DNA from: Gammaproteobacteria bacterium
GTDB lineage: Bacteria; Pseudomonadota; Gammaproteobacteria; Arenicellales; CAJQKF01
Assembly: GCA_030429665.1 (NCBI GenBank)
Contig: JAUIEZ010000004.1
Location: 3,967 to 67,966 of the forward strand
Direction: 5' to 3'
DNA: 64,000 nucleotides
Shown here: positions 13,175-30,957 of the stretch, piece by piece
How the letters are laid out: each line of letters opens with the position of its first letter
Position numbering within the stretch: position 1 is the stretch's first letter
Made by a program: the position numbers and the translations under genes
The notes under the pieces: model-generated
Told to the model about the DNA's origin: nothing
The model's input: only the letters and a program-made list of their open reading frames with translations
The model's database searches: none

Positions 13175-13927
13175 CTATACGGGAAACTTCTCCGACCGGG
13201 CACGCGCCTCGTCGGTGGAAAACGATTCGATCGTGATTTCCTCTTCGAGATCCAGCGCGCGGCCCAGGTCCCCGGACAGGCCGCGGGTCAGTAGGTGCTT
13301 CAAGTTGCCGGTCGAGAATCTCGATTTCCCGGCCACGCGCCCGGCGACATCCATGGCGCGATGCCTGATCTCCTCGACCGGCTCGACCCAGTTGACCAGG
13401 CCCATACCGTGCAGGTCGCGCGCCGACTGGCGCTCGCCGAGCACGAGAAGTTCCATCGCGCGCTGGTAGCCGATCGCTTGCGGCAGCAGGTGGGTGACGC
13501 CGCCGGTCACGAACTGTCCCCATTCCATCTCCGGGAAAAACGCCACGAGATCCTCCGACGCGACCACCATGTCGCAGTTCAGCATCCACTCGAAACCGCC
13601 GCCGACCGCGTAGCCCTGCACGGCGCCGACGACCAGCTTGTCCATGAACATCAGGTCGCGCGTGATTCTCTGTATGCTTTCGATGTGTCTGCGCGTTGCC
13701 GCCGGGTTCTCGGTTTGCTGACCGAACTCCTTCAGGTCGTCGCCGGCGCAAAATGCGCGGCCGGCGCCGCACAGCACGACGACATCGACTTCATCGTCGG
13801 ACGCCGCGCGTTGCAGCGCCTCGTGCAGTTCCATGCACAGACCCGTGGAAATGGCGTTGAGTCGTTCGGGCCGGTTCAACTCGACAATGCCGATTCGCTC
13901 GTGGCGTTCGAAGTTTACGGATGACAT
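13175..13927 (-). CDS. enoyl-CoA hydratase/isomerase (crotonase) family protein
   Basis: C-terminal part of track ORF 13175..15172. True ATG is at 13927 (MSSVNFERHERIGIVELNRPERLNA), with the crotonase motifs GAGRAFCAGDDL and VQGYAVGGGFE. The RBS GAGAGAGG lies in the end of the ligase gene. Confidence 0.85.
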   Translation of the reverse strand: MSSVNFERHERIGIVELNRPERLNAISTGLCMELHEALQRAASDDEVDVVVLCGAGRAFCAGDDLKEFGQQTENPAATRRHIESIQRITRDLMFMDKLVVGAVQGYAVGGGFEWMLNCDMVVASEDLVAFFPEMEWGQFVTGGVTHLLPQAIGYQRAMELLVLGERQSARDLHGMGLVNWVEPVEEIRHRAMDVAGRVAGKSRFSTGNLKHLLTRGLSGDLGRALDLEEEITIESFSTDEARARSEKFPV

Positions 13928-13929
13928 GT

Positions 13930-15249
13930 TCAACCTCTCTCGATGATCGACGTTTTCCCCTCGGTGCGCGGCAGCGTCTCGAAGGCCAGCATCTCGATGG
14001 CGGCCGACGCGCCGATGGCGCCGCGTATCGCGTTCTCCAGCGCCCGGGCAGCGCCATCCCACCGTTCGCGAGGCAGGTCCGCGGCCGCCTCCACCCGGAG
14101 CCGGATTCGCTCGTAGGGTCCGGGGCCGGCCAACACGATCCGGAAATGGCCCGAGGCGATGTCCGGGTGTTCCACGATGACTTTGTGGATCGCCGTCGGG
14201 AACACGTTGACGCCGCGCACATTGAACATGTCGTCGGTGCGGCCGGTGACGCGGAAACGAAACCCCGTTCTTCCGCAACGGCACGGTCCGGCGCCGGTCA
14301 CGGTGACCACGTCGCGGGTGCGATAGCGGATCAGCGGCTGGCACGCCTTCTCCAGGTGCGTGCAAACCAATTCGCCGGAGATGCCGTCCTCGATGCCGAG
14401 TCGCTCGCCCGTGCGTGGATCCAGGAGCTCGATGAACAGCGCGTCGCCGGCGATGCAATGCAGGTCGTTGGTCTCCTCGCACTGGCTGGCGATAATGCTC
14501 ATGACTTCGCTGAGTCCGAAGTTCGCGTTGCGCACCCTGAATCCCCACTTGTCCTCCATGGTATCGCGGAAGCGCTGGCTGTCGAGTCCCGCTTCGCCGC
14601 CGAACAGCGCCAGACGCAGCCCCAGTTGCCGGGGCTCGAGGTCGAACGCCTCGCGCAGCGTCTGCTCCAGCGTCGCCGGGTAGGACGGGGTGCAGGAAAT
14701 GGCCGTGACGCGCTGGTGTCTTATGGTTTCGATCAACCGGCGGGTTCCGCCGACGCCGTACGGGATCACCGCCGCCCCCGTGCCTTCCAACGACATGTGA
14801 TCCGTTACCCCGCCCGTCCAGAGCTGGTAGTTCAGGCAGTGCACGACGCGGTCGGACGGCCGAAGCCCCGCGGCGAAGAAGCCGCGGGCGCCAAGGCGGG
14901 CGATGACCTCGAGGTCGCGCCGGGTATTGGCGATCAGCAGTGCGCGGCCGGTCGTCCCGGACGTGTGATGAATACGGTTGACGTCCTCGGGCGGACAAGC
15001 CACGTAGTTTCCGAGCGGCGGCTCTGTCTCCTGGGACTTTCGCAGCTCTTCCTTGTCCGTCAGCGGCAGCGCGCGGATATCGTCCAGGGTCGGCGTCGTC
15101 CCGGTGGCGCCGGCGAACTTTTCCCGGTAAAACGGCGATCGAGAAATGACGTAATCCCACTGTTGCCGCCATTTTTCCTCTTGCAGCACCGACAGGTCGC
15201 GCATCGACAGCGTCTCGATCTGCGGATGCAGCAGGTTTCGCGAATTCAC
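13930..15249 (-). CDS. phenylacetate-CoA ligase (PaaK)-like adenylate-forming enzyme
   Basis: HPQIETLSMRDLSVLQEEKWRQQWDYVISRSPFYREKF aligns with the PaaK N-terminus, and the AMP motif HHTSGTTGRALL is present. The probable start is GTG 15249, preceded by GGGAGA. The track start at 15330 is longer. Confidence 0.8.
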   Translation of the reverse strand: MNSRNLLHPQIETLSMRDLSVLQEEKWRQQWDYVISRSPFYREKFAGATGTTPTLDDIRALPLTDKEELRKSQETEPPLGNYVACPPEDVNRIHHTSGTTGRALLIANTRRDLEVIARLGARGFFAAGLRPSDRVVHCLNYQLWTGGVTDHMSLEGTGAAVIPYGVGGTRRLIETIRHQRVTAISCTPSYPATLEQTLREAFDLEPRQLGLRLALFGGEAGLDSQRFRDTMEDKWGFRVRNANFGLSEVMSIIASQCEETNDLHCIAGDALFIELLDPRTGERLGIEDGISGELVCTHLEKACQPLIRYRTRDVVTVTGAGPCRCGRTGFRFRVTGRTDDMFNVRGVNVFPTAIHKVIVEHPDIASGHFRIVLAGPGPYERIRLRVEAAADLPRERWDGAARALENAIRGAIGASAAIEMLAFETLPRTEGKTSIIERG

Positions 15250-15339: not shown

Positions 15340-17016
15340 TCACTGCGCCGACACCCGGGGGGCGGGCTGATGCCGGCCGAACTTGACCGAGACTTCAGAC
15401 TGCCATTCGTTGACCAGCTCGATTTCCCAGTTCAGGTATTTCATCATGGCATCCTCGATCCGGGGCATCTCGAACGGGTCGAAGAAACGTTCGAGTTCCC
15501 AGTCCACGAACGCCTTGACCAGCGACTCCTTGCCGGCGGTCGCATTCCTGAACGCCTCGGTAAGCCAGGACGTCTCGCAGTAAATTTTCTCGGCGCCGAG
15601 CGACAGTTGCCTGCCCGAGCGTGCCCACGCGTCGTTACCGCCATCGAGCACGCGAACTGAATGACCCAGGTGCCCGAGATCGGCCGCGGCCGCCGCGCTC
15701 ATCGCGGCGTTCCTTGCGGCGAGAACGATGTGCCGGCCGTTCTCGCGGATCTTCCGCCAGTGACCGGAAAGCTCTCGGCGCGGGCAGAATCCGGCGCCGG
15801 GTACGTGCCCGGCGAGGTATTCGTGGCTTTGGGACACGTCGACAACCGTCGCCTGGCCGCGTTTGAGCATGTCGTCGAGCTGGTCGGCGCCGATCCAGTC
15901 CGCGGTGGTATCGCATGCCCTGCCCGCCATAGCAGGTGACACCGCGGAGCGGGTGAGCGGGCTCGGCATGTGCACGTAGGTGTCCCGCCATCCCATTTGC
16001 CGGAGCCAGCCGGCCGTCATGTGCGCGCGCGCGAAATCATCGTCGATGAGAACGACGCGCGCCCCTCGAACGGCAATGAACTCGTCGGTGGCCTGGACAA
16101 GCTGCCCCGCGGCGACGGGAATGCCCGTGGCAAGCGTTTCAGAGTCGTTCGATCGATCGCGAAGATCGAACAGGTAGAGTGTGCGTCGATCCCGTTGCTC
16201 GACGAGCGTGCGAAGTTCCTCGAGATCGATCTCGTCGATTGCCTGTCCGCGTATTCTCGATTCCACGTCGCCGGGAATCTTTGCCGGGATATCGTCCCGC
16301 GACCATCCGCCGCCAGCCGCGCCCGGGCCGTGCTCGAGTTCGTATCCCGACAAGTGCCAGCCCATCGTACCGTTGCGAAGGACCGACACCGGGTTGCCGT
16401 ACCCGGCGTTGATCAAGCCTTGCGCGGCGATGATCCCGCGGGTTCGCCCGCCGCAGTGTACGACGACGGGCATGTCCGGGTCCGTCGCGACGTACGGCAG
16501 CGCGCGATACAGTTCGCCGCCGGGCACGTGGACGGCGCCGGGCACATGGGCAAACAGGTGCTCGCGCAGGGGACGGCAGTCGACGACCACGCCTTTCCAA
16601 TTCCCCTGTAGCCGCTCGTGAAGCCAGTCTGCTTCGACGTTCGGCGTCCGGTAGGCATGCTCGACGTACTCGCCGAACGCCTTGCTTTCCGCGTTGACGT
16701 CCTGAAACGTAGGCAGCCCGCGCGCCTTCCAGGCCGTCACCCCGCCATTGAGTATCCTGACGTCGCTATAGTCCGCGCGTTGCAGTCGCGACCGCGCTCG
16801 CTCACCAGACTCATCGTCCCCGGCGATGACGACGATGGGAACGGACCGGCGTGGGAGTCTGACCGGCGCCTCGATGTCGAGACGATCATGGGGAATGTTT
16901 ACCGAGGCGAACAACTGGTCGCGAATGAATTCTTCCTGGAACCTGACGTCCACGACCGCGATCTCGCCGTCCGCCGCGAGTATCGTCGTCAGCTCGTCAA
17001 CCTCGATGTGGTGCAT
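15340..17016 (-). CDS. four-domain rhodanese-like sulfurtransferase with a C-terminal extension
   Basis: ATG 17016 (MHHIEVDEL...) is preceded by AAGGAAAG. Active-site loops by domain: D1 VIAGDDESGERA (no Cys), D2 VVHCGGRTRG (catalytic Cys), D3 LIDDDFARAH (no Cys), D4 VLAARNAAMS (no Cys). A ~70-aa tail has no recognisable family. Confidence 0.8.
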   Translation of the reverse strand: MHHIEVDELTTILAADGEIAVVDVRFQEEFIRDQLFASVNIPHDRLDIEAPVRLPRRSVPIVVIAGDDESGERARSRLQRADYSDVRILNGGVTAWKARGLPTFQDVNAESKAFGEYVEHAYRTPNVEADWLHERLQGNWKGVVVDCRPLREHLFAHVPGAVHVPGGELYRALPYVATDPDMPVVVHCGGRTRGIIAAQGLINAGYGNPVSVLRNGTMGWHLSGYELEHGPGAAGGGWSRDDIPAKIPGDVESRIRGQAIDEIDLEELRTLVEQRDRRTLYLFDLRDRSNDSETLATGIPVAAGQLVQATDEFIAVRGARVVLIDDDFARAHMTAGWLRQMGWRDTYVHMPSPLTRSAVSPAMAGRACDTTADWIGADQLDDMLKRGQATVVDVSQSHEYLAGHVPGAGFCPRRELSGHWRKIRENGRHIVLAARNAAMSAAAAADLGHLGHSVRVLDGGNDAWARSGRQLSLGAEKIYCETSWLTEAFRNATAGKESLVKAFVDWELERFFDPFEMPRIEDAMMKYLNWEIELVNEWQSEVSVKFGRHQPAPRVSAQ

Positions 17017-17060
17017 GGTCTTTCCTTTTGTTCTCTCTGGTTTGGCTGCCCATGACAAAA

Positions 17061-17075
17061 GCAACGTTCGTGCCA
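17061..17075 (-). promoter_or_regulatory. sigma-54 -24/-12 promoter (P1) for the rhodanese-ligase-hydratase operon
   Basis: Minus strand reads TGGCACGAACGTTGC (TGGCAC-N5-TTGC). Ends 44 nt upstream of ATG 17016. Confidence 0.8.
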
Positions 17076-17225
17076 AGGCATTTCGCCGTGCCACGTCGAT
17101 GCACGACACGGCGTGGCGAACCGGGATTGGCGATCCGTGCATCTCTCCCGGTTCGGCGCGGCCGGCCGGTGCGGGTGCCTGGCCGGCGCCCGGTTGTAAA
17201 TCCTTCGAGACAGTCGTCAAGATCT

Positions 17226-19076
17226 TTAACGTTCGTCTGCGTAATAGTTTTCGACACCGCCACGGTCGGCCGCGATGCCGCGTTCGAGCACCAGGTTATG
17301 CTTGCGGATCTTCGCGTACAGCGTCGGACGGGTGACGCCGAGCACCGCGGAGGTTCGCGTAATGTTGTAGTTGAACGTGTCCAACGCGGTAACCAGCGCT
17401 CGTTTCTCCGCCTGCGCCAATGAAAGAACGTCGTTCGATTCGCCCGATTGCGGCGCGACGGCCGGCGTCTTGATCGCCTCCAGGTCGAATCGCCGGATTC
17501 GGTCATCCGTCGCGAGGTGCACGGCGCGCTCGATGTTGTTCTCGAGTTGTCGCACGTTGCCCGGCCAGTCGAAATCGACAAGCTGGCGCATGGCCTCGTT
17601 CTCTATGCGAAACACGTCCTTGCCAAGTGCGCTGGCGCATTTTCTGAGGAACGTCGTCGCGAGTTGCGGAATGTCCTCCTTTCGGTTTCGCAACGCGGGC
17701 AGCTCGATCTCTATGACGTGTATGCGGTAGTACAGGTCTTCGCGAAACCGGTTCGTCTTCACCATCTCGAACAGATTGCGGTTGCTCGCGGAGATCACGC
17801 GCACATCGACATCGATCGGCCGACTGTCTCCAACACGGACTACCTGGCGTTCCTGCAGCACGCGGAGCAGCTTCGCCTGCACGTCGAACGGCAGCTCGGA
17901 GATCTCGTCGAGAAAGATCGTTCCGCCGGAGGCGAGTTCGAATTTCCCCGGACGGCCGTTCTTCACCGCGCCGGTAAAACTGCCGGGCGCGTAGCCGAAC
18001 AACTCACTCTCGATCAGTTCGCGCGGCAGCGCGGCGCAGTTCAGCGCGACAAACGGTCCGCTGTCGCGCTTGCTCTCGTTGTGTATGGCTTGCGCGAAGA
18101 CTTCCTTGCCGGTGCCGCTCTCACCGCTGAGCAGCACGGTCGCGCTCCCGGTAGCGGTCTGCCTGGCCAGCTTGACGCACGCCTGGAACGCCGGCGCTTC
18201 TCCGACGAGATCGTCGAACGTGTAGCGTGCGTGGTTCCCCGCGATCTTGTGCGCGATCCGGTGCATGCTTCGGATCTCCCTGAAGGTGTTCACTACCGAC
18301 TGGACGACGCCGTACTGGTCCTTGATCGGCACGGCGGTGTCGATCAGGTGAACCTTGCGGGTGCTCGTCGAGCGGATGGTTTCCCGATCGACGAAACCCA
18401 CGCCGGTTTCGAAAATGCGAACGATCGAAGGCTCGTACTCGAGCACGTCCTCGAGCCGCCTGCCGATGGCGTCTCTGGGGATCACGCTCAGAATTCGGCC
18501 CGCGGGCACGTTCATGAATCGGACCACGTGACTCCTGTCCAGCACGATCAGACCGTCGCTGATGTTTTCGATGATCGCCTGCTGTTCGGACACGATCTGG
18601 GCCAGCTTGTCGCGAGACGCGGCGAGCGCGTTGTGCATGCTGAAGGCTTCCGCAGCCAGGCGGAGCGCGAGCGCGAGGGTGGCGGAACTCGTCGCCGGCG
18701 CGGCGATGCCGGCGACGACGGCGCAGGCGCCGTCCCGGCCGGCCCGTATAGGCACGGCGATCAGCCCGGGCGGCAATCCAGTCCGATTGCGGGGGGCGAA
18801 TGCGCCCTCCTGTGCGTCGCCGCTTTCGATTGCCCGGGTTACCGGATTCGGCGAGTCGGCGTCGGCGCGGAAAGAGAAGCCGATGCCGATGCCCAGTTGA
18901 TCGAGAAAGCGCTCGCTTGCCCCGGTCCGCGGAATCACCGAAACCCGCGCATGCCCGTCACACACGAACACGCCAACGCGATCGCTTTGCGCGAGGTACT
19001 CGAGCGCCACGCCGACGATGGCGTCCAGGCTCTCGCGAAACTCTTCCATCGATCCGGACAATGCATCGTCGTTCAT
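17226..19076 (-). CDS. sigma-54-dependent Fis-family transcriptional activator (GAF-like N-domain + PAS + AAA+ + HTH; AcoR-like architecture)
   Basis: Walker A GESGTGKE, sigma-54 contact loop GYAPGSFTGA, WPGNVRQLEN, and C-terminal HTH RTSAVLGVTRPTLYAKIRKH. ATG 19076 has GGAGG 7 nt upstream. The track start at 19103 is an alternative. Confidence 0.9.
   Translation of the reverse strand: MNDDALSGSMEEFRESLDAIVGVALEYLAQSDRVGVFVCDGHARVSVIPRTGASERFLDQLGIGIGFSFRADADSPNPVTRAIESGDAQEGAFAPRNRTGLPPGLIAVPIRAGRDGACAVVAGIAAPATSSATLALALRLAAEAFSMHNALAASRDKLAQIVSEQQAIIENISDGLIVLDRSHVVRFMNVPAGRILSVIPRDAIGRRLEDVLEYEPSIVRIFETGVGFVDRETIRSTSTRKVHLIDTAVPIKDQYGVVQSVVNTFREIRSMHRIAHKIAGNHARYTFDDLVGEAPAFQACVKLARQTATGSATVLLSGESGTGKEVFAQAIHNESKRDSGPFVALNCAALPRELIESELFGYAPGSFTGAVKNGRPGKFELASGGTIFLDEISELPFDVQAKLLRVLQERQVVRVGDSRPIDVDVRVISASNRNLFEMVKTNRFREDLYYRIHVIEIELPALRNRKEDIPQLATTFLRKCASALGKDVFRIENEAMRQLVDFDWPGNVRQLENNIERAVHLATDDRIRRFDLEAIKTPAVAPQSGESNDVLSLAQAEKRALVTALDTFNYNITRTSAVLGVTRPTLYAKIRKHNLVLERGIAADRGGVENYYADER
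17228..17245. promoter_or_regulatory. candidate enhancer (UAS) site upstream of P1
   Basis: AACGTT-N6-CGTAAT, ~155-170 nt upstream of the -24 element. Overlaps the stop codon of the regulator gene. Confidence 0.3.
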
Positions 19077-19124
19077 CACTTGACCTCCCGGATTATCGGA
19101 CATGATTCACGCCACCGCGTCCGC

Positions 19125-20414
19125 TTACGACCGGTACACGACTTCGGGCAGCCACAGCGCGATCTGCGGCCAGAGAATCAACAATGCGAGCATCACGACC
19201 ATCGGCGCAAGGAACGGAAGCACGCCGACGATCACGTCGTTGATCGAGCCGCGACGCCTGACACCCTGAACGACGTAGAGATTCATTCCGACCGGCGGCG
19301 TGATCAGCGCCGTCTCGAGCAGCACGATCAGGAGGATTCCGAACCAGACCGGGTCGTACCCGGATGCCGTGACGATCGGAACGACGATCGGCGCGGTAAT
19401 GATCATCATGGAGATCGCCTCCATGAAACATCCGAGAACAAGGTAGAGCAAGATCACGGCGAGCAGCGTTTGAAAGGGCGAAAGATCCAGCGCTGCGATG
19501 AAATTCATCAGGGTGCTGGAGAATCCGGTGACTCCCAGCACGAAGTTGAGGTACTGCGATGCGAGCACGATGAGCATGATCATGCCCGTCGTCCTCATGG
19601 TGCCCCGAATCGCCTCGGCGAGCATGGGGCGGGTCAACCGGCGTGTCGAGGCTGCCAGGGCGAGGGACGCGCACACGCCCACCGACGCGGCCTCCGTGGG
19701 AGTGGCGATGCCGAGATAGATCGGGCCGATGACGCAGGCGAAGACGAGCAGCGGCGGCACCAGGTCGGGCAGCACCGCGACTCGCTCGCGCCAGCTACAC
19801 GCCACCGGCTGACCCCTGACCGACGGAAAAAGCAGCGCCGCGACGAGTATGGTGGAAATGAACAGGCTTGCCAGCATCAGTCCCGGCAGGAATCCGGCAA
19901 TGTACAACTCGGGAACGGACGTGCTCGTAATCAGGCCGAAGATGATCAGGTTGATGGACGGCGGAATCAGTATTCCCAATGTTCCGCCCGCCGCGATGCT
20001 GCCGAGAAACAACGGCTCGTGGTAGCCGCGCTTGTGGATTTCTGGCAGGGCGACGGTGGAAATGGTCGCCGCGGTCGCGAGGCTGGAACCGGACGTCGCG
20101 GCAAACACCGCCGAGGCGCCGATGTTGGAATGCATCAGTCCGCCGGGAAGCCACGACAGCCATTGCGCGATACCGTCGTACATGCGCGTCGCTATGCCGG
20201 CGCGCACCATGATCTCGCCAAGCAGCACGAACAGCGGCACGGCGACGAGAAGAAATTCCGTGCTGGTCTGCCAGAGAATCTCACCCATCGCCAGGTGAAG
20301 CGGCATTGGCGAGTAGGTTGCGCCAAGCCAGGTGGCGACTATCCAGATGGCGGACGCGACCGGAATGGAAAGTCCGATCAGCACGATGAGCAGCAGCGCC
20401 GTGTAGCCGATCAT
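19125..20414 (-). CDS. dctM: TRAP transporter large permease
   Basis: True start is ATG 20414 (MIGYTALLLIVLIG...), overlapping the dctQ stop (ATGA). The track ORF 19125..20942 is over-extended. Confidence 0.9.
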   Translation of the reverse strand: MIGYTALLLIVLIGLSIPVASAIWIVATWLGATYSPMPLHLAMGEILWQTSTEFLLVAVPLFVLLGEIMVRAGIATRMYDGIAQWLSWLPGGLMHSNIGASAVFAATSGSSLATAATISTVALPEIHKRGYHEPLFLGSIAAGGTLGILIPPSINLIIFGLITSTSVPELYIAGFLPGLMLASLFISTILVAALLFPSVRGQPVACSWRERVAVLPDLVPPLLVFACVIGPIYLGIATPTEAASVGVCASLALAASTRRLTRPMLAEAIRGTMRTTGMIMLIVLASQYLNFVLGVTGFSSTLMNFIAALDLSPFQTLLAVILLYLVLGCFMEAISMMIITAPIVVPIVTASGYDPVWFGILLIVLLETALITPPVGMNLYVVQGVRRRGSINDVIVGVLPFLAPMVVMLALLILWPQIALWLPEVVYRS

Positions 20415-23955: not shown

Positions 23956-23971
23956 TGGCACGGGACTTGCA
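23956..23971 (+). promoter_or_regulatory. sigma-54 -24/-12 promoter (P4) for the aminotransferase-GST unit
   Basis: Plus strand reads TGGCACGGGACTTGCA. Ends 55 nt upstream of ATG 24027. Confidence 0.8.
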
Positions 23972-24026: not shown

Positions 24027-25337
24027 ATGTCCGAATCAACGCGTACCCGTATAGATGAAGAACTTCGACAGGCCAGCGAACGTTACGCCGCCGCCAGGCC
24101 GAGGAGTCGGGAGCGCCACGACGACGCGGCGCGAGTCATGCCGGGCGGCAATACGCGAACCGTGTTGTTCTTCTCGCCGTTCCCGTTCATCGTCACGCGC
24201 GGTGAAGGCGCGTACCTGTGGGACCTGGACGGTCATCGCTACACGGATTTTCTCGGCGAGTACACGGCCGGCCTGTTCGGCCATTCGGATCCGGCGATCG
24301 ACGAGGCGATCCGCCGCGCCCTGGACGACGGCATCGTGCTTGGGGCGCACAACGAGGTCGAGTCGCGCCTCGCCGGAGAAATACTGAGGCGCTTCTCTTC
24401 CATGGAAAGAGTCCGCTTCACGAACTCGGGCACCGAGGCCAATCTCATGGCGCTGGGTATCGCGCGACTTGCGACCGGTCGACGCCGGGTCATGGTGTTC
24501 AACGGCGCTTACCACGGCGGCGTGCTGTATTTTGGCGACAGCGCGCGAACCGTCAACGTGCCGATCGACGTCGTGCACGGAGAGTACAACGATGCCGCGG
24601 GTGCGCAGGAGTTGATTCGACGCCATGGCGACGAGATCGCGGCCGTTCTCGTCGAGCCGATGCTTGGTGCGGGCGGCGCGATACCGGCAAACCGAGAATT
24701 CCTGATCGCGTTGCGCGAGTCGACGCATGAGCACGGTTGCCTGCTGATATTCGACGAGGTGATGACTTCCCGCACCGGCGCCGCCGGCGCGCAAGGCTAT
24801 TACAACGTGCGCCCGGACATGACCACCCTGGGAAAATACCTGGGAGGCGGCCTTTCGTTCGGAGCTTTCGGCGGCCGGGCGGACGTCATGGATCACTTCG
24901 ATCCGCGTCGCGCGGACGCAGTGCCGCACGCGGGGACGTTCAACAACAACACGCTATCGATGTGCGCGGGACTGGCGGGTATCACGCAGGTCTACACCCC
25001 GGAGCGGGCGCTTGCGCACTTTGGCAAGGGGGAAGCGTTTCGCGAAGCGTTGAACGCGTTGTTTCGGGAGCGGGGCGTGCCGATGCAATTTACCGGACTG
25101 GGATCGATCATGAATTTTCATCCGCAGTCGTCGCCGATACGATGCCCTCGCGATATCGACGTCTCGCGGGCGTCGATCAGGGATCTGTATTTTTTCTTCA
25201 TGCTGGAGAACGGCGCGTACCTCGCGCGACGCGGGTTGATTAGCCTGTCGCTGGCGCTCGGCCAGCACGACCTCGACGCGTTCGTGTACCAGACCCGGCG
25301 ATTCATCGATCGCTTCGGCGACCTGCTCGACGCGTGA
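24027..25337 (+). CDS. class-III (glutamate-1-semialdehyde aminomutase-like) PLP aminotransferase
   Basis: MPGGNTRT...RGEGAYLWDLDGHRYTDFLGEYTAGLFGH...FTNSGTEANLMAL...LIFDEVMTSR pattern. RBS AAGGTGG. Confidence 0.85.
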   Translation: MSESTRTRIDEELRQASERYAAARPRSRERHDDAARVMPGGNTRTVLFFSPFPFIVTRGEGAYLWDLDGHRYTDFLGEYTAGLFGHSDPAIDEAIRRALDDGIVLGAHNEVESRLAGEILRRFSSMERVRFTNSGTEANLMALGIARLATGRRRVMVFNGAYHGGVLYFGDSARTVNVPIDVVHGEYNDAAGAQELIRRHGDEIAAVLVEPMLGAGGAIPANREFLIALRESTHEHGCLLIFDEVMTSRTGAAGAQGYYNVRPDMTTLGKYLGGGLSFGAFGGRADVMDHFDPRRADAVPHAGTFNNNTLSMCAGLAGITQVYTPERALAHFGKGEAFREALNALFRERGVPMQFTGLGSIMNFHPQSSPIRCPRDIDVSRASIRDLYFFFMLENGAYLARRGLISLSLALGQHDLDAFVYQTRRFIDRFGDLLDA

Positions 25338-25374: not shown

Positions 25375-26016
25375 ATGATAACCATTTGGGGCCGGCAGAA
25401 TTCGAGCAACGTCCGCAAAGTGCTGTGGTGTTGCGCCGAGCTGGATATCCCGTTCGAGAGAAAGGACGTCGGCGGTGGCTTCGGCGGCCTGCATGACACC
25501 CACTACGCGCGATTGAATCCCAATGCGAAGATTCCCACGATCGAGGACGGCGACTTCGTACTCTGGGAATCCAACGCCATCGTCAGGTACCTTGCATCGC
25601 GTTACGGTGCGGGCACCCTGTGGCCGGTCGATCCGATCGTTCGGGCCGATGCCGATCGATGGATGGACTGGCAGATAACGACCATCCGTCCGCCGATCAT
25701 CGACATGGTACTGGCCTGGTTGAACGACTGTTCCCGCTATCCCGAATCGAACTTTCGCGCGATGGAAAAACCGCTGAGAACGTTGGACGCGGCGCTTTCC
25801 GATCGCGCGTTCGTCGCCGGGGACGACTTCACGATGGGGGATATACCGCTCGGACTGATCGCCTACTGGTGGTACGGCTTCGACATCGATCACTACGACA
25901 CCCCCAACGTCCGCTCATGGTATGACCGGCTCTGCGAGCGTCCCGGGTACGTCGAACACGTGCTGGAGAAGCCGTTTGGTCCGGCTAGTGATCACGAAGA
26001 CTACGATTGCGCATGA
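25375..26016 (+). CDS. glutathione S-transferase family protein
   Basis: MITIWGRQNSSNVRKVLW...KIPTIEDGDFVLWESNAIVRYL thioredoxin-like GST N-domain. RBS GGAGGAGAG. Confidence 0.85.
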   Translation: MITIWGRQNSSNVRKVLWCCAELDIPFERKDVGGGFGGLHDTHYARLNPNAKIPTIEDGDFVLWESNAIVRYLASRYGAGTLWPVDPIVRADADRWMDWQITTIRPPIIDMVLAWLNDCSRYPESNFRAMEKPLRTLDAALSDRAFVAGDDFTMGDIPLGLIAYWWYGFDIDHYDTPNVRSWYDRLCERPGYVEHVLEKPFGPASDHEDYDCA

Positions 26017-26045
26017 ATCCGCGCGTTACGGAAATCCGGGTCGAA

Positions 26046-26062
26046 AACGTTACCGGCGTAAC
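26046..26062. promoter_or_regulatory. candidate enhancer (UAS) site upstream of P5
   Basis: AACGTT-ACCGG-CGTAAC, which contains the perfect inverted repeat GTTAC-CGGC-GTAAC. Lies ~120-135 nt upstream of the -24 element, and TACGTTAC follows at 26070-26077. Confidence 0.3.
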
Positions 26063-26181
26063 AATTCTTTACGTTACGACGCTTTACGGTTGACAAGATC
26101 GCAGCGTATTGCGCCGGATCCTGCAACGGCGAATAGTCGCTTCGCTCGCCATTGCGCGACGGCACGGCGCCATTCGAGTTC

Positions 26182-26197
26182 TGGCATGCTTTTTGCG
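26182..26197 (+). promoter_or_regulatory. sigma-54 -24/-12 promoter (P5) for the second dctPQM and the IlvD/Edd dehydratase
   Basis: Plus strand reads TGGCATGCTTTTTGCG (GG and GC correctly spaced, one mismatch to TGGCAC). Ends 58 nt upstream of ATG 26256. Confidence 0.7.
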
Positions 26198-26255: not shown

Positions 26256-27263
26256 ATGCCAGTAAGCAATCCACGTCGCGGACACATCCACCACTCCACG
26301 CTGCTCGTCACGACAGCCGTAATGCTCGCCATATCCGGAACGGTCCGCGCCGAAACCGTTTTGCGCGTGGGACAACCCACCACGCCGGAGTCGGGATACG
26401 GCGTGTTCGCCGAATCCTGGGCGGAGAAAGTCGACGACTACACCGACGGCGAAGTGGTCATCAAGCCATATCACAACGGCCAGCTGGGCGACGAGAAGGC
26501 CCTGGTCGAGGCGATGCGCCTGGGAACCGTCGAAGGCGGCATCGTCACCACGGACGTTCTGATCAACCACGTTCCGGAGTTTGCCGCACTCAGTTTGCCT
26601 TTCGCATTCAAGAGTTACGACGACGCGCATGAATTTCTCGCCGGCGACGCAGGTGCGTTGCTGCTCGGGCGGATGGGAGACGTCGGCCTCAAGGGGTTCG
26701 CGTTCGCCGACGTCAGCTTTCGCTCGATCGGCAACAACATTCGCCCGATCAACACGCCCGAGGATATGCGCGGCATGAAGCTTCGCGTCATCCAGTCGCC
26801 CATTCCGGTCGCCGTCATGAACGCCCTCGGGGCGCAACCAACCCCGATCGCCTGGGGCGAGACGATTCCCGCCCTGAAGCAAGGGATCGTGGATGGGCTC
26901 GCAACGGGTAACGCCTACTATTACATCGGCCGCGTCTACGATTACACCAGGTACTTCACGTTCACCAATCACGCGTATTCCGCCATGGTCGCGGTGCTTT
27001 CCAGGACGAGCTGGGATGCGTTGACCCCACAACAGCAGGATTCCGTGGCGCGTGCCGCCGCGGAAGCCGCGCCGATTGCCAACGCGGTGGTGGCGGACGT
27101 GGAACGTACCATGGTTCCGGAGATCACCGCGGCTGGCACCGAGGTCAACCGGCTTGCCGATGCCGCGCCGTTTCGCGAGGCGGTGTTGCCGCTTTGGGAC
27201 GATCAGGCCGATAAGGTGGGCGATAAGCTGATGACGATGCTGCGCAGCCACGCCGGCATGTAA
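26256..27263 (+). CDS. dctP: TRAP transporter substrate-binding protein (DctP family), second copy
   Basis: ATG 26256 is preceded by GAGGAGGA. Signal-like LLVTTAVMLAISGTVRA, then a DctP-like body. The track ORF start at 26109 is over-extended. Confidence 0.9.
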   Translation: MPVSNPRRGHIHHSTLLVTTAVMLAISGTVRAETVLRVGQPTTPESGYGVFAESWAEKVDDYTDGEVVIKPYHNGQLGDEKALVEAMRLGTVEGGIVTTDVLINHVPEFAALSLPFAFKSYDDAHEFLAGDAGALLLGRMGDVGLKGFAFADVSFRSIGNNIRPINTPEDMRGMKLRVIQSPIPVAVMNALGAQPTPIAWGETIPALKQGIVDGLATGNAYYYIGRVYDYTRYFTFTNHAYSAMVAVLSRTSWDALTPQQQDSVARAAAEAAPIANAVVADVERTMVPEITAAGTEVNRLADAAPFREAVLPLWDDQADKVGDKLMTMLRSHAGM

Positions 27264-27319
27264 ATTCGTTCTTCGCGTCCCACCGATTCCACCGTGCAGT
27301 GTAGCGCGTCGATTCCCGT

Positions 27320-27351
27320 AATCGCTCCGATCGCGCGCGATCGGAGCGATT
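27320..27351. repeat. perfect 32-nt palindrome / intercistronic stem-loop between dctP and dctQ
   Basis: AATCGCTCCGATCGCG|CGCGATCGGAGCGATT. The two 16-nt arms are exact reverse complements. Confidence 0.9.
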
Positions 27352-27366
27352 CTTCGCGATATACCC

Positions 27367-27840
27367 ATGGTTCAGCGGGTCAATAAACTGCTCGAGAACG
27401 TCGGGATCATTCTGGCCGGCAGCATGATCGCCGTGTTGTTCTTCCAGGTCTGCAGCCGTTACCTCGCCGGGTACTCGCCGGTGTGGGCGTCGGAGATTGC
27501 CCAGGCGCAGTTCGTCTGGGTGTGTTTCATCGGGTTCGCCATCGCCCTCGAGCGCGGCCAACACGTTTCCCTCGAGTACCTGCTGGAGCGGCTTCCTTCG
27601 CGTGCGCGGCTCGTGCTGGCGATACTTGCAGAGCTGTCGATGCTGTCGTTCGCGGTGACGATGTGCTACGGCGGGCTGGTGCTCGTCGATCGTCTGAAGG
27701 ATTCGGTGACGTCGGGCCTCGGCATCTCGGTGGCCTGGGTCTACGCCGCACCGGTAGCCGCCGGCGCCGTCATGACGCTGGTGTCGACGATGCGACTGGC
27801 CGCCCTCGCTAGACAGCGAATCGTAGGCGGCCATCCATGA
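27367..27840 (+). CDS. dctQ: TRAP transporter small permease, second copy
   Basis: 157-aa 4-TM ORF. Its stop overlaps the dctM start (ATGA). Confidence 0.85.
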   Translation: MVQRVNKLLENVGIILAGSMIAVLFFQVCSRYLAGYSPVWASEIAQAQFVWVCFIGFAIALERGQHVSLEYLLERLPSRARLVLAILAELSMLSFAVTMCYGGLVLVDRLKDSVTSGLGISVAWVYAAPVAAGAVMTLVSTMRLAALARQRIVGGHP

Positions 27841-29117
27841 ACGAATCCGCCTGGCTTCTGCTTCTCGTGTTCGTCGGCGCACTCGGCATCGGCGCGCCCA
27901 TAGCGCTCGCCATCGCCGGTGCCTGCATGGTGTTTCTCCTGGCGAACGGCCTGCCATTGTTCCTGGTGGCGCATCACATGGTCACCGCGGTCGATTCCTT
28001 CACGTTGATCGCGGTGCCCGGATTCCTGCTCGTCGGCACGCTCATGTCGCGTGCCGGGATGATCGAAAGGCTGGTCGAGTTCAGCATGGCGCTGGTCGGC
28101 TGGCTCGCCGGAGGCCTGTCGCTCGTTACCATCACCGCGTCCATGATTTTCGCCGGGATCTCGGGTTCCGCGGTGGCTGACACTGCCGCCGTGGGTGCTT
28201 CGACCATACCCGCGCTCAAGCGAAACCGCTATGCGCCGGACTACGTCGCTGCACTGGTGGCGGCCGGCGGTTCGATCGGTATCATCATCCCGCCAAGCAT
28301 ACCGATGATCATCTACGGCGTATCGACCAACACGTCGATTCCGAAGCTGTTCGTCGCGGGCTACCTTCCCGGTCTGCTGCTGGGGATGGCTTTCATGGTG
28401 TACGCCTACTTTGTCGCCCGGCGCAAGGGATACGGAGAACAGGTTCGGTTCTCGGTTCCCGCCTTGTCGACCTCGTTCAGAAAAGCGTTCTGGGCGTTGC
28501 TCGCGCCGATCATCATCGTCGGCGGTATCGTGTTCGGAATCATGACGCCGACCGAATCGGGAATCGTCGGCGTCGCCTACGTGCTCGCCATCGGATTGTT
28601 CGTTCATCGAAGCCTTGATTTTCGAGACCTCGTGGACTCGTTCGTTGAGGCCATCACGTTGAGCGGTGTCGTGATGATGGTCGTGGCAACCTCGGGCCTG
28701 CTCGCCTGGATTCTCGCCAGGGAGGGCATTCCCGAGCAGATGGTCGAGTTGATCCTCGGCGGCCTGACCGATGAGATCGTCATCCTCCTGGTTATCAACG
28801 TGACGCTCCTGGTGCTCGGCGCGTTCATGGACACCATCGCGATCATGCTGATCCTCCTGCCCGTGTTGACGCCTATCGGGGTTGCGCTCGGTCTGGATCC
28901 GGTGCATTTCGGCGTCATCGTCGTGTTCAACCTCGCCATCGGCATGCTGACGCCGCCGCTCGGTTACTGCCTGTTCGTATCCAGCACCATCTCCAACGTG
29001 AACCTGGGAAGAGCGAGTCTCAGGGTCCTGCCGTTCGTCGCGATTTCCCTGGCCGTGCTGCTGCTGGTGACGTTCTGGCCGGCTATTACGCTGGGGTTGG
29101 CGAACAACGTGCGTTAA
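27837..29117 (+). CDS. dctM: TRAP transporter large permease, second copy
   Basis: 426-aa polytopic DctM-like ORF. Confidence 0.9.
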   Translation: MNESAWLLLLVFVGALGIGAPIALAIAGACMVFLLANGLPLFLVAHHMVTAVDSFTLIAVPGFLLVGTLMSRAGMIERLVEFSMALVGWLAGGLSLVTITASMIFAGISGSAVADTAAVGASTIPALKRNRYAPDYVAALVAAGGSIGIIIPPSIPMIIYGVSTNTSIPKLFVAGYLPGLLLGMAFMVYAYFVARRKGYGEQVRFSVPALSTSFRKAFWALLAPIIIVGGIVFGIMTPTESGIVGVAYVLAIGLFVHRSLDFRDLVDSFVEAITLSGVVMMVVATSGLLAWILAREGIPEQMVELILGGLTDEIVILLVINVTLLVLGAFMDTIAIMLILLPVLTPIGVALGLDPVHFGVIVVFNLAIGMLTPPLGYCLFVSSTISNVNLGRASLRVLPFVAISLAVLLLVTFWPAITLGLANNVR

Positions 29118-29232
29118 AGTCGCCCGGCCGGCGGACCGGCATCCGGTTGACGATCCACGCGGTGGTTTGGTGCGATGCCGGGGCCCCGCGTCGTGGCATG
29201 CACCAGGACAACCAGAGAAGACTACGCACACG

Positions 29233-30957
29233 ATGACCAATACAGACGATCGCGGCATGCGCCGCGGGCTCACGCGCTACGGCGATGCCGGATTTTCCCT
29301 GTTTCTGCGCAAGGCCTTCATCAAGGCCATGGGTTACTCCGACGACGCTCTCGAACGACCGGTCGTCGGTGTCGTCGACACCGGCAGCGGCTACAACGCC
29401 TGTCATCGCAATGCGTCCGAGCTCGTCGACGCCATCAAGCGTGGCGTCATGCTTGCCGGGGGGTTGCCGGTCGAGTTCCCCACCGTTTCCATTCACGAGT
29501 CCTTCGCCCATCCGACCTCCATGTTTCTGCGCAACCTGATGGCGATGGACACGGAAGAGATGATCCGCGCCCAGCCCATGGACGCCGTGGTCATGATCGG
29601 CGGCTGCGACAAGACCGTGCCCGCCCAGCTCATGGGTGCCGCCAGCGCCGGCGTGCCCGCCATCTCGGTGGTTACCGGACCCATGATGACCGGGAGCTAC
29701 CGGGGTGAACGCCTCGGCGCGTGTACCGACTGCCGGCGGTTCTGGGGCATGCATCGCGCCGGCGAGCTGGAGGAAGGCGAGATCGACGCGGTAGGCGATC
29801 GCCTCTGCCCCACGGCCGGCACCTGCATGGTCATGGGCACCGCGAGCACGATGGCGTGCATGACCGAGGCGCTTGGAATGATGCTTCCCGGCGGCGCCTG
29901 CATACCCGCGGTGGCCGCCGACCGGACACGCCATGCGGAGGCGGCCGGCCGGCGTGCCGTGGCCATGGCGGAGGAACGCCTGGTGCCGGATAGAATCATG
30001 ACGCCGGCCGCCTTCACCAATGCGTTTCGCGTGCTCATGGCCATTGGCGGATCCACCAACGCCCTCGTGCACATGACCGCGGTGGCGGGCCGGCTGGGCA
30101 TCGCCGTCGATCTCGCGGCGCTGGACCGGCTGGGTCGCGAAACGCCCGTGCTCGTCGATCTCAAGCCGAGCGGCAGTCACTACATGGAAGATCTGCACGA
30201 CGCCGGCGGCATGATCGCCGTGCTGCGCGAGTTGTCGCCCCTGCTCAACCTGGACTGCCTTACCGTGACCGGCCGCAGCCTGGGTGAGAACCTAGACGCC
30301 GCCGCGCCTTCCTGGTCGCAGTCCGTGGTCCGCCCGTGTAGCGATCCGCTCTACCCGGAGGGCGGCCTCGCCGTCCTCTCCGGCAACCTCGCTCCCGGCG
30401 GTGCGGTCGTCAAGCACAGCGCCGCCTCGCCGGAACTGTTGAATCATCGCGGTCGCGCGGTGGTATTCGATTCCCTCGACGACCTCGCGCGGCGCATTGA
30501 CGATCCCGGCCTCGACGTGAACCCCGACGACGTGCTGGTGCTTCGCAATGCCGGTTCGAAGGGTGCGCCCGGTATGCCCGAGGCGGGATACATCCCCATA
30601 CCGGCCAAGCTTGCGCGGCAGGGCGTGAAGGACATGGTGCGAGTTTCCGATGCACGGATGAGCGGGACGGCGTTCGGCACCATCGTTTTGCACGTCACGC
30701 CGGAATCCGCGGTAGGCGGACCGTTGGCGAGAGTGCGCAACGGGGACACGATACACCTTGATGTCGCCGCTCGCCGCATCGCACTCGAGGTCGGCGAAGC
30801 AGAACTTGCCCGGCGCGTGCCGAGTCCGCCGCCATCGCACGCCGGCGCCGAACGCGGCTACCTGAGACTATTTCTCGACCACGTCACCGGGCCCGATGTC
30901 GGCGCGGACTTCGATTTTCTGGCGCCGCCTCTCTCGGGTCGCGTGACGCCGGGTTGA
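29233..30957 (+). CDS. IlvD/Edd family dehydratase (sugar-acid / dihydroxy-acid dehydratase type)
   Basis: True ATG is at 29233 (MTNTDDRGMRRGLTRYGDAGF...). Motifs include CDKTVPAQLMG, PTAGTCMVMGTASTM and GGSTNALVH. Confidence 0.85.
   Translation: MTNTDDRGMRRGLTRYGDAGFSLFLRKAFIKAMGYSDDALERPVVGVVDTGSGYNACHRNASELVDAIKRGVMLAGGLPVEFPTVSIHESFAHPTSMFLRNLMAMDTEEMIRAQPMDAVVMIGGCDKTVPAQLMGAASAGVPAISVVTGPMMTGSYRGERLGACTDCRRFWGMHRAGELEEGEIDAVGDRLCPTAGTCMVMGTASTMACMTEALGMMLPGGACIPAVAADRTRHAEAAGRRAVAMAEERLVPDRIMTPAAFTNAFRVLMAIGGSTNALVHMTAVAGRLGIAVDLAALDRLGRETPVLVDLKPSGSHYMEDLHDAGGMIAVLRELSPLLNLDCLTVTGRSLGENLDAAAPSWSQSVVRPCSDPLYPEGGLAVLSGNLAPGGAVVKHSAASPELLNHRGRAVVFDSLDDLARRIDDPGLDVNPDDVLVLRNAGSKGAPGMPEAGYIPIPAKLARQGVKDMVRVSDARMSGTAFGTIVLHVTPESAVGGPLARVRNGDTIHLDVAARRIALEVGEAELARRVPSPPPSHAGAERGYLRLFLDHVTGPDVGADFDFLAPPLSGRVTPG

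Follow-up and report, generated by a model that had tools for sequence, protein, structure and literature searches.

A conserved sigma-54-type gene island in an Arenicellales bacterium combines TRAP uptake with an enzyme set that matches no known pathway

The 64,000-nucleotide (nt) stretch of DNA analysed here, referred to in full as the window (assembly GCA_030429665.1, contig JAUIEZ010000004.1, from a gammaproteobacterium of the Arenicellales), carries at positions 13175-30957 an island of 14 genes in five units, each placed behind a promoter of the TGGCAC-N5-TTGC type. Five conserved promoters and the sole activator of the window support the view that the island is a coherent sigma-54 unit. 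Sigma-54 catabolic regulons with tripartite ATP-independent periplasmic (TRAP) uptake are an already known type of system, and this particular gene set matches no known pathway. The explanation that we put forward, tentatively and at well short of even confidence, is a mosaic sigma-54 regulon built around a cassette of acyl-coenzyme A (CoA) ligase, crotonase and activator, in which the left arm handles sulfur-substituted C3/C4 carboxylates and to which beta-amino-acid and dihydroxy-acid units have been recruited. Gene families, promoters, conservation and neighbourhood statistics are the observations on which this account is built, and every substrate and reaction named below is read from them.

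The G+C content of the window is 62-69%, and raw lists of open reading frames (ORFs) are therefore crowded with shadow frames; genes were picked by third-position G+C (GC3) and then confirmed with Pfam and NCBIfam. Every gene listed in the original prediction, which had been made from the sequence alone, was recovered at the same coordinates in this way. Against the NCBIfam cut-offs, none of the island enzymes scores high enough to be assigned a specific function, and the sole island protein above any of them is the IlvD/Edd protein, for a broad subfamily. The earlier statement that the set fits no pathway holds on this basis, and its exclusion of the liu/atu, paa, prp, ectoine, sulfo-ED and sugar-acid routes stands. 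The features of the island are as follows.

13175-13927, minus strand: crotonase / enoyl-CoA hydratase, 250 residues, last gene of the rhodanese-ligase-hydratase operon
13930-15249, minus strand: PaaK-family acyl-CoA ligase, 439 residues as called in source (alternative start 15204, 424 residues)
15340-17016, minus strand: PA2603-type multi-domain rhodanese, 558 residues (Pfam Rhodanese, 1YT8 match)
17061-17075, minus strand: sigma-54 promoter P_rhod, TGGCACGAACGTTGC, 44 nt upstream of the rhodanese ATG
17226-19103, minus strand: sigma-54 enhancer-binding activator with PAS, AAA+ and HTH_8 domains (start 19103 or ~19076)
19125-22132, minus strand: TRAP transporter 1 (dctP1 21059-22132, dctQ1 20411-20998, dctM1 19125-20414; Pfam)
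22230-22244, minus strand: sigma-54 promoter P_dctP1, TGGCACGATAGTTGC, 97 nt upstream of dctP1
22409-23797, minus strand: MmgE/PrpD-family protein, 462 residues (MmgE_PrpD_N/C), probably monocistronic
23842-23856, minus strand: sigma-54 promoter P_mmgE, TGGCACGTCGCTTGC, 44 nt upstream of the mmgE/prpD ATG
23956-23970, plus strand: sigma-54 promoter P_bTA, TGGCACGGGACTTGC, 56 nt upstream of the aminotransferase ATG, divergent from P_mmgE
24027-25337, plus strand: predicted VpAT/MesAT-type beta-amino-acid transaminase (class III), 436 residues (4AO9/2YKU matches)
25375-26016, plus strand: cytosolic glutathione S-transferase (GST), 213 residues (GST_N/GST_C), co-transcribed with the transaminase
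26182-26196, plus strand: sigma-54 promoter P_dctP2, TGGCATGCTTTTTGC, one mismatch, 59 nt upstream of dctP2
26256-29117, plus strand: TRAP transporter 2 (dctP2 26256-27263, dctQ2 27367-27840, dctM2 27837-29117; Pfam)
29233-30957, plus strand: IlvD/Edd-family dehydratase of the sugar-acid dehydratase branch, 574 residues (NCBIfam NF004784)

The promoters are the firmest ground for treating these genes together. Exact copies of TGGCAC-N5-TTGC number four in the window where 0.12 are expected, a count reached in 0 of 100 shuffles, and the four lie within 7 kb of one another; the fifth site, P_dctP2, departs from the motif at one position and lies 2.2 kb beyond, the whole spanning 9.1 kb. All five have the -24/-12 form GG-N10-GC, lie within the island and point towards a start codon that is 44-97 nt away, and the motif was not found in the rest of the window. 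In three metagenomic relatives, L002, L003 and L004, all five promoters are kept in position although the intergenic DNA around most of them has diverged, and the sites orthologous to P_dctP2 read TGGCAC. L002 carries an additional motif, TGGCAT-N5-TTGC, at position 6107 on the minus strand. A hairpin follows the mmgE/prpD stop codon; terminator-like hairpins are no commoner than in shuffled sequence.

The activator has a Sigma54_activat domain (PF00158, 2e-69), a PAS_4 domain, an HTH_8 domain (1e-9) and a GSFTGA loop, which is the combination of AAA+ domain with GAFTGA-type loop and C-terminal helix-turn-helix expected of a sigma-54 activator; its N-terminal domain belongs to no assigned family. 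Only 21 nt separate the start of its gene from dctM1, and it is therefore probably transcribed from P_dctP1. No second sigma-54 activator was found in the 64-kb window, and with five conserved promoters and a single activator the sigma-54 units described in the original prediction are borne out. Blocks of the TTGACG/TTTACG type are conserved upstream of P_rhod and P_dctP2 in the four genomes, within surroundings that have diverged, and weaker ones occur at P_dctP1. Short repeats of this type at ~26060-26110 and 17160-17190, present at the same places in L002-L004, are candidate activator binding sites. Alignment of the promoter regions revealed no clear shared upstream activator site at the divergent P_mmgE/P_bTA pair, and overall such a site is suggested rather than convincingly indicated.

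The proteins of the window itself are confined in public data to one 86-kb NCBI contig. The original prediction had proposed looking for the set in other genomes, and three further ones carry it. L002 is a 468-kb ENA scaffold with all 14 genes, L003 is a Logan contig and L004 is a metagenome-assembled genome labelled Gammaproteobacteria; the island loci of the latter two are truncated by a contig end at one or both sides. As far as the contigs reach, the three contain the same genes in the same order at 70-90% protein identity, and the sole break in gene order is a histidine-kinase gene inserted between ilvD/edd and dctM2 (L002 3374-4618). The window and its relatives also have their flanks in common, with methylcrotonyl-CoA carboxylase genes on one side and a nitronate monooxygenase (NMO)-family gene on the other, and the island is therefore likely to be stable in this lineage rather than a recent insertion. 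Inclusion of the carboxylase (liu) genes in the unit was considered and rejected, as they are flanking only. The NMO gene (nitronate monooxygenase/FMN oxidoreductase; window 31037-32077, minus strand; L002 434-1474) is convergent to ilvD/edd and has no sigma-54 promoter. Between the crotonase and methylcrotonyl-CoA carboxylase genes the window has a gene for a DUF2189 membrane protein (12164-12964), which is missing at L002 20600-20848, where the carboxyltransferase comes directly.

Beyond these close relatives the full set is not maintained. The MmgE/PrpD protein has three relatives at 70% identity or more in the clusters searched, those of L002, L003 and L004, and the next stands at 43%. What recurs farther out is limited to sub-modules, namely the ligase with crotonase and activator, MmgE together with rhodanese and ligase (5-9 loci), and DctP1 together with MmgE. 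A megablast search of the island against plasmids matched the IlvD/Edd gene only. The notion of one unit for one substrate, as first advanced, is thus retained in part, as a co-conserved sigma-54 set; a single substrate is not supported, and conservation of the entire set is confined to close relatives. The findings are accounted for no less well by a mosaic regulon that serves several related acids than by a single pathway dedicated to one compound.

The ligase-crotonase-activator group is an old, widespread and uncharacterised cassette, and a literature search found no paper describing it. The ligase has AMP-binding and AMP-binding_C_2 domains (Pfam) and belongs to the PaaK family without being an equivalog of PaaK (251.5 against the TIGR02155 cut-off of 646.3); among PDB entries it matches PaaK 2Y27 (5e-65) and then the 2-hydroxyisobutyryl-CoA ligase 6HDW (2e-49), and it has more than 2000 homologues at E<1e-80, many of them 60-69% identical. 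The crotonase (ECH_1, E 3e-47) finds its best PDB match in 5ZAI, a 3-hydroxypropionyl-CoA dehydratase, and keeps in GGGFE and FPEMEWG both catalytic glutamates of enoyl-CoA hydratases. Its gene lies directly 3' of the ligase gene in each of the seven contexts inspected. Six of these, from Variovorax paradoxus VAI-C, Caballeronia NK8, Tistrella mobilis, Mesorhizobium and two metagenome contigs, encode ligases 58-69% and crotonases 60-72% identical to those of the window, and the seventh, from Rhodobacteraceae M382, does so at 49% and 40%. Five of the seven also encode, no more than a few genes away, a PAS-type sigma-54 activator whose 51-57% identity to that of the window extends to the normally variable PAS domain, and orthologous activators stand beside ligase-crotonase pairs in Variovorax, Caballeronia, Tistrella and others. 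The Variovorax cassette operon has its own TGGCAC-N5-TTGC upstream. In five of the seven contexts a gene for a hotdog thioesterase of the FlK family precedes the ligase gene, and the transporter attached to the cassette elsewhere is either of the TRAP type or an ATP-binding cassette (ABC) system of the Leu/Ile/Val type. This order, from acid to CoA ester, through a crotonase step, to thioester hydrolysis, suggests that a short unsaturated or beta-substituted acid is converted. In the lineage of the window the rhodanese occupies the position of the thioesterase, and neither an FlK-type thioesterase gene nor a HAD gene is present in the window.

Several further observations concern the cassette in other genomes. 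The TRAP systems attached to it in Tistrella and in L108 were considered as orthologues of TRAP1 or TRAP2 and rejected (DctP ~32%, DctM 41% identity). HAD genes attached to it in Variovorax (L087 12089-12775) and Mesorhizobium (L106 12261-12947) encode proteins that begin with FDYFGTL / FDFWGTL, a pattern typical of L-2-haloacid dehalogenases, and that lack the second phosphatase aspartate. In Caballeronia sp. NK8 (L088 15775-16377) a gene annotated as dimethylsulfoniopropionate lyase adjoins the orthologous activator gene and is convergent with it. In V. paradoxus VAI-C a cluster of MaoC, acyl-CoA dehydrogenase, CoA transferase and MmgE/PrpD genes (L087 15947-20579) lies directly downstream of the orthologous activator, and its composition matches that of the itaconate/methylsuccinate clusters described previously (PMC12290011).

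The rhodanese aligns over its residues 10-508 with 1YT8 (E 3e-80), a multi-domain thiosulfate sulfurtransferase from Pseudomonas aeruginosa that is presumably PA2603, and by this full-length match and the presence of at least one CxxxxxR loop it is of the PA2603 type. An active-site cysteine loop (HCGGRTRG) occurs in domain 2 only, and the C-terminal tail of ~80 residues matches nothing. The four domains originally assigned to this protein are three as scored by Pfam; the fourth (~residues 265-360) is degenerate and discernible solely from the full-length 1YT8 match. Homologues at 33-37% identity were found in 140 plasmid or chromid records, and in all seven annotated contexts that were opened organosulfur enzymes adjoin the rhodanese homologue. 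Four of them (Ralstonia, a Comamonadaceae strain, Paraburkholderia sprentiae and Sodalis) have a cysteine-dioxygenase-type gene beside the rhodanese gene, and the other three have luciferase-like monooxygenases (LLM) with SfnB (Caballeronia), TauD (Azospirillum), or LLM together with the sulfite exporter TauE (Shinella).

Such pairings have precedents, as the genes for PA2602, a 3-mercaptopropionate dioxygenase, and for PA2603 are apparently transcribed as a single unit (PMC12947264), and in Variovorax paradoxus B4 and Advenella the gene for mercaptosuccinate dioxygenase is clustered with one for a rhodanese (PMC5373536). The island shares with these pairs the same type of multi-domain rhodanese, which in the pairs belongs to an operon with enzymes for a small thiol-bearing carboxylate. 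It is not itself a pair of this kind: tblastn with the Ralstonia dioxygenase detected no such gene anywhere in the window, and the rhodanese gene instead heads an operon with CoA ligase and crotonase. A route encoded in the window would thus be oxygen-independent and CoA-dependent, and its regulation would be by sigma-54, in contrast to the LysR regulation of the dioxygenase-rhodanese pairs.

In four more distant loci (L014, L026, L046 and L050; for example L026 12697-17490) a protein with an acyl-CoA-dehydrogenase fold, a PaaK-family ligase and a PA2603-type rhodanese recur together, the ligases being 33-38% identical to that of the window. A flavin reductase lies between the dehydrogenase-fold protein and the ligase in L014, L026 and L046, which makes a two-component monooxygenase a possible identity for the former in these three loci. 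The ORF caller gave no rhodanese in L014, yet tblastn shows rhodanese similarity at 16994-18421. Acyl-CoA dehydrogenase-like neighbours in distant loci were evaluated as 3-sulfinopropanoyl-CoA desulfinases and rejected, with scores of 97 and 160 against a cut-off of 600.

Membership of the MmgE/PrpD protein in its family is clear (PF03972, 3e-47; PF19305, 8e-23), and H108, K206 and K269, the His/Lys residues that bind carboxylate, are invariant in the alignment. It is not a 2-methylcitrate dehydratase by the PrpD model NF042438 (42.3, cut-off 950), and its best PDB match is iminodisuccinate (IDS) epimerase (4e-34). All characterised members of the family act on a succinate backbone from which the C2 proton is removed, and two family epimerases, methylsuccinate isomerase and IDS epimerase, use a histidine and a tyrosine with YxxxH spacing (PMC12290011). 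Most homologues at ~40% identity read YTSxH at this site, where the clade of the window reads DTSIH/DTSVH with Asp157, the mapping to Tyr148/His152 being made by motif spacing and not by direct alignment with the P. aeruginosa enzyme. Aspartate in the position of the tyrosine therefore disfavours a two-base epimerase, and allows for a lyase or another one-base reaction.

A census of neighbourhoods covered 80 loci with MmgE homologues, namely the close relative L004 and 79 loci at 33-43% identity. Searches of the 79 by tblastn with marker proteins detected TauD-family enzymes in ~28, LLM monooxygenases in ~12 and PA2603-type rhodaneses in 9, along with TauE, SfnB-like proteins and flavin reductases in several. 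The ORF caller recovered the MmgE gene in 68 loci; TauD is its immediate neighbour in 17 of these, and TauD, LLM or rhodanese occurs anywhere in the locus in 31. Judged by NCBIfam, the neighbours fall just below the model for SfnB (416.5 against 430.9), above that for NtaA/DmoA (450.3 against 279.7) and near that for taurine dioxygenase (277 against 313). In L005 the gene order is SfnB, flavin reductase, LLM, SDR, MmgE and acyl-CoA dehydrogenase, and in L041 the MmgE gene is surrounded by three TauD genes, TauE, a crotonase and a 52%-identical beta-transaminase. In a neighbour-joining tree, built without support values, the MmgE clade of the window and the LLM-associated clade are sisters. Together with the contexts of the rhodanese homologues, these neighbourhoods lend real support to the sulfur chemistry suggested in the original prediction. 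A literature search found no paper linking MmgE/PrpD proteins with sulfonates.

TRAP1 may be tied to the same protein. Two complete, adjacent sets of DctP, DctQ and DctM genes identify both island transporters as DctP-type TRAP systems (Pfam), and DctP1 is a divergent member, with a weak Pfam DctP match (88 bits) and best PDB matches (2PFY/2PFZ) of only 2e-15. A 39%-identical DctP1 homologue on Tistrella pTM2 has an MmgE/PrpD gene immediately downstream in the same operon.

Two known systems are instructive here. The yxe operon of B. subtilis, which deals with S-(2-succino)cysteine, encodes the monooxygenase YxeK and YxeQ, of undefined function (PMC9706529), and YxeQ is homologous to MmgE/PrpD-family proteins (PMC8752978). 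A yxe-type locus has been defined by at least three of YxeK, YxeL, YxeMNO, YxeP and YxeQ (PMC9706529); the island has the YxeQ-family protein only, LLM queries had no match in the window, and there are no acetyltransferase, deacetylase or ABC genes in the island. No homologue of YxeK, YxeL or YxeP and no ABC transporter accompanies the window protein, which is not especially close to that of B. subtilis (7BRA, E 3e-22). The likeness is that an MmgE/PrpD-family protein is present in both, in the case of the yxe operon (YxeK, YxeL, YxeMNO, YxeP, YxeQ) within a sulfur-scavenging cluster for a 2-thio-substituted succinate, and that proteobacterial relatives of the window protein also neighbour LLM monooxygenases, the class to which YxeK presumably belongs. 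The second system is the itaconate/methylsuccinate cluster (P. aeruginosa PA0878-PA0886; C. necator; PMC12290011), which likewise combines TRAP uptake, MmgE/PrpD and CoA-ester enzymes and whose substrate is a substituted succinate. In contrast to it, CoA transferase, MaoC hydratase, lyase and acyl-CoA dehydrogenase are all missing from the window, and the second catalytic base of the isomerase, the tyrosine of YTSxH, is Asp157 in the window protein.

The right arm, comprising beta-transaminase, GST, TRAP2 and IlvD/Edd, is of a different character. The aminotransferase had been described as class III and similar to glutamate-1-semialdehyde (GSA) aminomutase; the class is correct, and the resemblance lies far closer to beta-transaminases. 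Its match to 4AO9, the beta-phenylalanine aminotransferase of Variovorax (VpAT), has an E value of 3e-135 (455 bits) and that to 2YKU of Mesorhizobium one of 9e-129, compared with 9e-65 (223 bits) for the best GSA aminomutase and with 289.5 for the HemL model TIGR00713, the cut-off of which is 527.3. Over its full length it is ~53% identical to VpAT, and the alignment places R44, V46, E78 and Y79 at VpAT R41, V43, E75 and Y76, with the catalytic lysine in TTLGKY. In VpAT R41 binds the substrate carboxylate, V43 and Y76 bind the substrate ring, and E75 positions the arginine (PMC9850050). By these matches, the signature residues and the HemL score, the protein is thus predicted to be a beta-transaminase, which narrows the amino or oxo acid first suggested as its substrate to a beta-amino acid. 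The carboxylate-binding arginine and the V/E/Y signature are those of VpAT/MesAT (4AO9, 2YKU); unlike the VpAT/MesAT homologues inspected, the gene is paired with a GST gene under a sigma-54 promoter, and the physiological pathway of VpAT/MesAT is itself undefined. Homologues at 50-55% identity (Skermanella, Paraburkholderia, Sinorhizobium) lie beside assorted transporters, an amidase or peptidases, and those inspected showed no link to GST, TRAP, IlvD/Edd, ligase or crotonase genes.

The GST reaches no NCBIfam cut-off, and its best PDB matches, 6NV6 and 4IEL, are bacterial GSTs of unstated function; its N-terminus appears to resemble that of E. coli GstB, which conjugates bromoacetate. TRAP2 and IlvD/Edd together look like a sugar-acid module. 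The best PDB matches of DctP2 (4P47, 4NQ8, 4PF8, 4X8R, 4N8Y and 4P9K) are sugar-acid or pantoate-binding TRAP proteins, and the IlvD/Edd protein scores 846 against a cut-off of 539 for NF004784 and 700 against 882 for the L-arabinonate dehydratase model, with PDB matches to 8EJ0 (2e-168) and to the L-arabinonate dehydratases 5J84/9EVV (2e-160). Both proteins therefore fall in the branches of sugar-acid TRAP and IlvD/Edd aldonate dehydratase systems (5J84, 8EJ0). Unlike those systems, the island has no aldolase, kinase or dehydrogenase for a 2-keto-3-deoxy acid, and the module stands under a sigma-54 promoter type that it has in common with unrelated enzymes. The genomic contexts of DctP2 and IlvD/Edd homologues were variable and uninformative.

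These observations can be drawn together in a working scheme. The cassette would convert a short free carboxylic acid to its CoA ester, to which the crotonase would add, or from which it would eliminate, a group at the beta-carbon. In this lineage the PA2603-type rhodanese would have replaced the hotdog thioesterase that normally heads the cassette, and four more units would have gained the same promoter type: TRAP1 with the activator, MmgE/PrpD, beta-transaminase with GST, and TRAP2 with IlvD/Edd. TRAP1 may import a sulfur-substituted succinate- or propionate-like acid such as mercaptosuccinate, an S-(2-succino) adduct or 3-mercaptopropionate. The MmgE/PrpD protein would remove, from a succinate-type backbone, the proton adjacent to a carboxylate and either isomerise the compound or eliminate the substituent, ligase and crotonase would process the C3 acid as CoA ester towards a 3-hydroxyacyl-CoA, and the single active rhodanese domain would take up the released sulfur as sulfide, persulfide or sulfite. 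The right arm would feed the same pool, the beta-transaminase turning a beta-amino acid into a 3-oxo acid and TRAP2 with IlvD/Edd importing and dehydrating a 2,3-dihydroxy (sugar) acid. A more specific proposal, which we consider speculative and rather unlikely to be correct as it stands, is that the rhodanese-ligase-crotonase operon and the TRAP1-linked, aspartate-variant MmgE/PrpD protein carry out an oxygen-independent C-S cleavage of thiol- or thioether-substituted succinates and propionates (mercaptosuccinate, S-(2-succino) adducts, 3-mercaptopropionate) by an elimination at the beta-carbon in which the sulfur passes to the rhodanese. On a wider scale, the proteobacterial MmgE/PrpD branch that holds the counterparts of YxeQ would, by the same proposal, act on sulfur-substituted succinates alongside TauD, LLM and SfnB oxygenases.

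A number of results weigh against sulfur chemistry in a common regulon. The association of MmgE with sulfur genes comes from ~40%-identical homologues, and those associated with TauD form one clade, so that few independent events are represented; TauD-family and NtaA-family oxygenases act on non-sulfur substrates too, and the window clade does not have the tyrosine of the MmgE homologues with sulfur-related neighbours. The ligase-crotonase cassette is mostly free of any sulfur gene in the contexts inspected, and its native substrate therefore need not contain sulfur. Neither a desulfonating oxygenase or thiol dioxygenase nor a sulfite exporter or sulfite dehydrogenase came to light in tblastn searches of the island and the rest of the window. 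The contexts of homologues revealed no sulfur link for the beta-transaminase, GST, TRAP2 or IlvD/Edd. A common promoter class is not proof of a common activator, and the candidate upstream activator sites are suggestive only. The scheme also gives no reason why the left and right arms have promoters of one kind.

It is plausible, if on balance doubtful, that there is no common substrate at all, and that sugar-acid, beta-amino-acid, dicarboxylate and short-acid CoA modules are adjacent by chance, all dependent on sigma-54 and possibly on separate activators elsewhere in the genome, with conservation reflecting shared descent. The restriction of the full set to relatives at 70-90% protein identity is what such a patchwork would produce, the modules differ from one another in distribution and in the class of Proteobacteria that holds their best homologues, TRAP2 with IlvD/Edd is much like any sugar-acid system, and no convincing shared activator site is found at the divergent P_mmgE/P_bTA. 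What chance adjacency accommodates poorly is the concentration of four exact motifs in 7 kb, with a fifth 2.2 kb on and none in the remaining window, and the position of the one activator in mid-island, apparently transcribed from one of the five promoters. All promoters have moreover been kept in three diverged genomes, as has gene order save for one inserted kinase gene, and the long-range sub-modules (MmgE with rhodanese and ligase in 5-9 loci, DctP1 with MmgE) recur.

Somewhat less probable, and in our estimation unlikely, is a beta-amino-acid catabolic regulon without sulfur chemistry, in which TRAP import and transamination to a 3-oxo acid would be followed by CoA trapping by the ligase and by crotonase and host beta-oxidation, rhodanese and GST being accessory or stress proteins. 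Candidate substrates would be aromatic (beta-phenylalanine) or aliphatic (3-aminobutyrate, beta-leucine). The closeness of the transaminase to the Variovorax beta-phenylalanine aminotransferase (~53% identity, with all four signature residues) is the natural starting point for this explanation, to which the placement of the ligase in the aryl-acetate (PaaK) family can be added, as can the presence, beside the ligase cassette in some genomes, of Leu/Ile/Val-type binding proteins, a family that also binds aromatic acids. On the other hand, the nearest relatives of the crotonase are short-chain enzymes, a thiolase, a ring-processing gene and a 3-hydroxyacyl-CoA dehydrogenase are all absent from the island, and among transaminase homologues at 50-55% identity no link to a ligase, crotonase, GST or IlvD/Edd gene is conserved. 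MmgE/PrpD, IlvD/Edd and the translationally tight rhodanese-ligase-crotonase operon would also be left unaccounted for.

A further alternative, which appears quite improbable, is that halogenated or otherwise beta- or alpha-activated short-chain acids (halo-propionates, halo-acrylates, haloacetates) are detoxified or used by CoA activation, elimination or hydrolysis by the crotonase, and glutathione conjugation. In the 4-chlorobenzoate pathway a ligase, a crotonase-family dehalogenase and a hotdog thioesterase act together, and AcuN/AcuK convert acrylate to 3-hydroxypropionate; the logic of acid to CoA ester, crotonase chemistry at the beta-carbon and release is similar, and the widespread cassette has the order thioesterase-ligase-crotonase. 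The cassette elsewhere also carries the hotdog protein of the FlK (fluoroacetyl-CoA thioesterase) family and the HAD protein with the FDYFGTL / FDFWGTL start, and the apparent likeness of the GST N-terminus to GstB points the same way. Against this, these family names come from type members only, both the thioesterase and the HAD gene are missing from the window, and rhodanese, MmgE/PrpD, transaminase and IlvD/Edd are left unaccounted for. The island further differs from the 4-chlorobenzoate pathway in its PaaK-type ligase and in its crotonase, which has the glutamate pair of a hydratase instead of dehalogenase residues. Least probable of all is the catabolism of N-substituted aspartates or aminopolycarboxylates (iminodisuccinate-like or opine-like), in which MmgE/PrpD would serve as an epimerase or lyase and the amino group would be taken off by the transaminase, an account to which the IDS epimerase as best solved MmgE/PrpD relative, the NtaA/DmoA-family monooxygenases near ~40% MmgE homologues, and the weak match of a TauD-family neighbour to ScoE, which acts on an N-carboxymethyl beta-amino acid, lend some colour, and from which the replacement of the epimerase tyrosine by aspartate, the lack in the island of a C-N lyase (fumarase/aspartase class) and of a monooxygenase, and rhodanese, TauE and SfnB associations that indicate sulfur rather than nitrogen all detract.

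Elsewhere in the window, on the minus strand, two long ORFs of 1605 and 1018 residues occupy 36462-43873 in different frames, overlapping at 40817-41279, and their products together contain numerous PAS and GAF domains along with a 5TMR-LYT membrane module, a histidine kinase and a receiver; the ORFs are either a single frameshifted gene of more than 2400 residues or a pair of neighbouring sensor genes. Positions 44009-46813 (minus strand) hold another TRAP system, the third, which is of the TAXI type, with a fused DctQM permease (588 residues) and an NMT1_3 binding protein. The gene at 53266-55950 (minus strand) encodes an 894-residue fusion of CoA-binding, ATP-grasp and GNAT acetyltransferase domains, the architecture of Pat-type protein lysine acetyltransferases.

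The main interest of the mosaic regulon proposed here is the link, across genomes, of an orphan MmgE/PrpD branch, PA2603-type rhodaneses and organosulfur enzymes, together with the uncharacterised cassette. The combination of thioesterase, PaaK-family ligase, crotonase and PAS sigma-54 activator is now defined as a widespread cassette, whatever its substrate. Beta-transaminases, a class used in biotechnology, are placed for the first time in a regulated genomic context, which may help to find their natural substrates. Should the sulfur chemistry prove true, the orphan MmgE/PrpD branch and the long-unexplained YxeQ would gain a testable role, and the organism would possess a CoA-dependent, oxygen-independent alternative to the thiol dioxygenases for thiol acids such as 3-mercaptopropionate and mercaptosuccinate.

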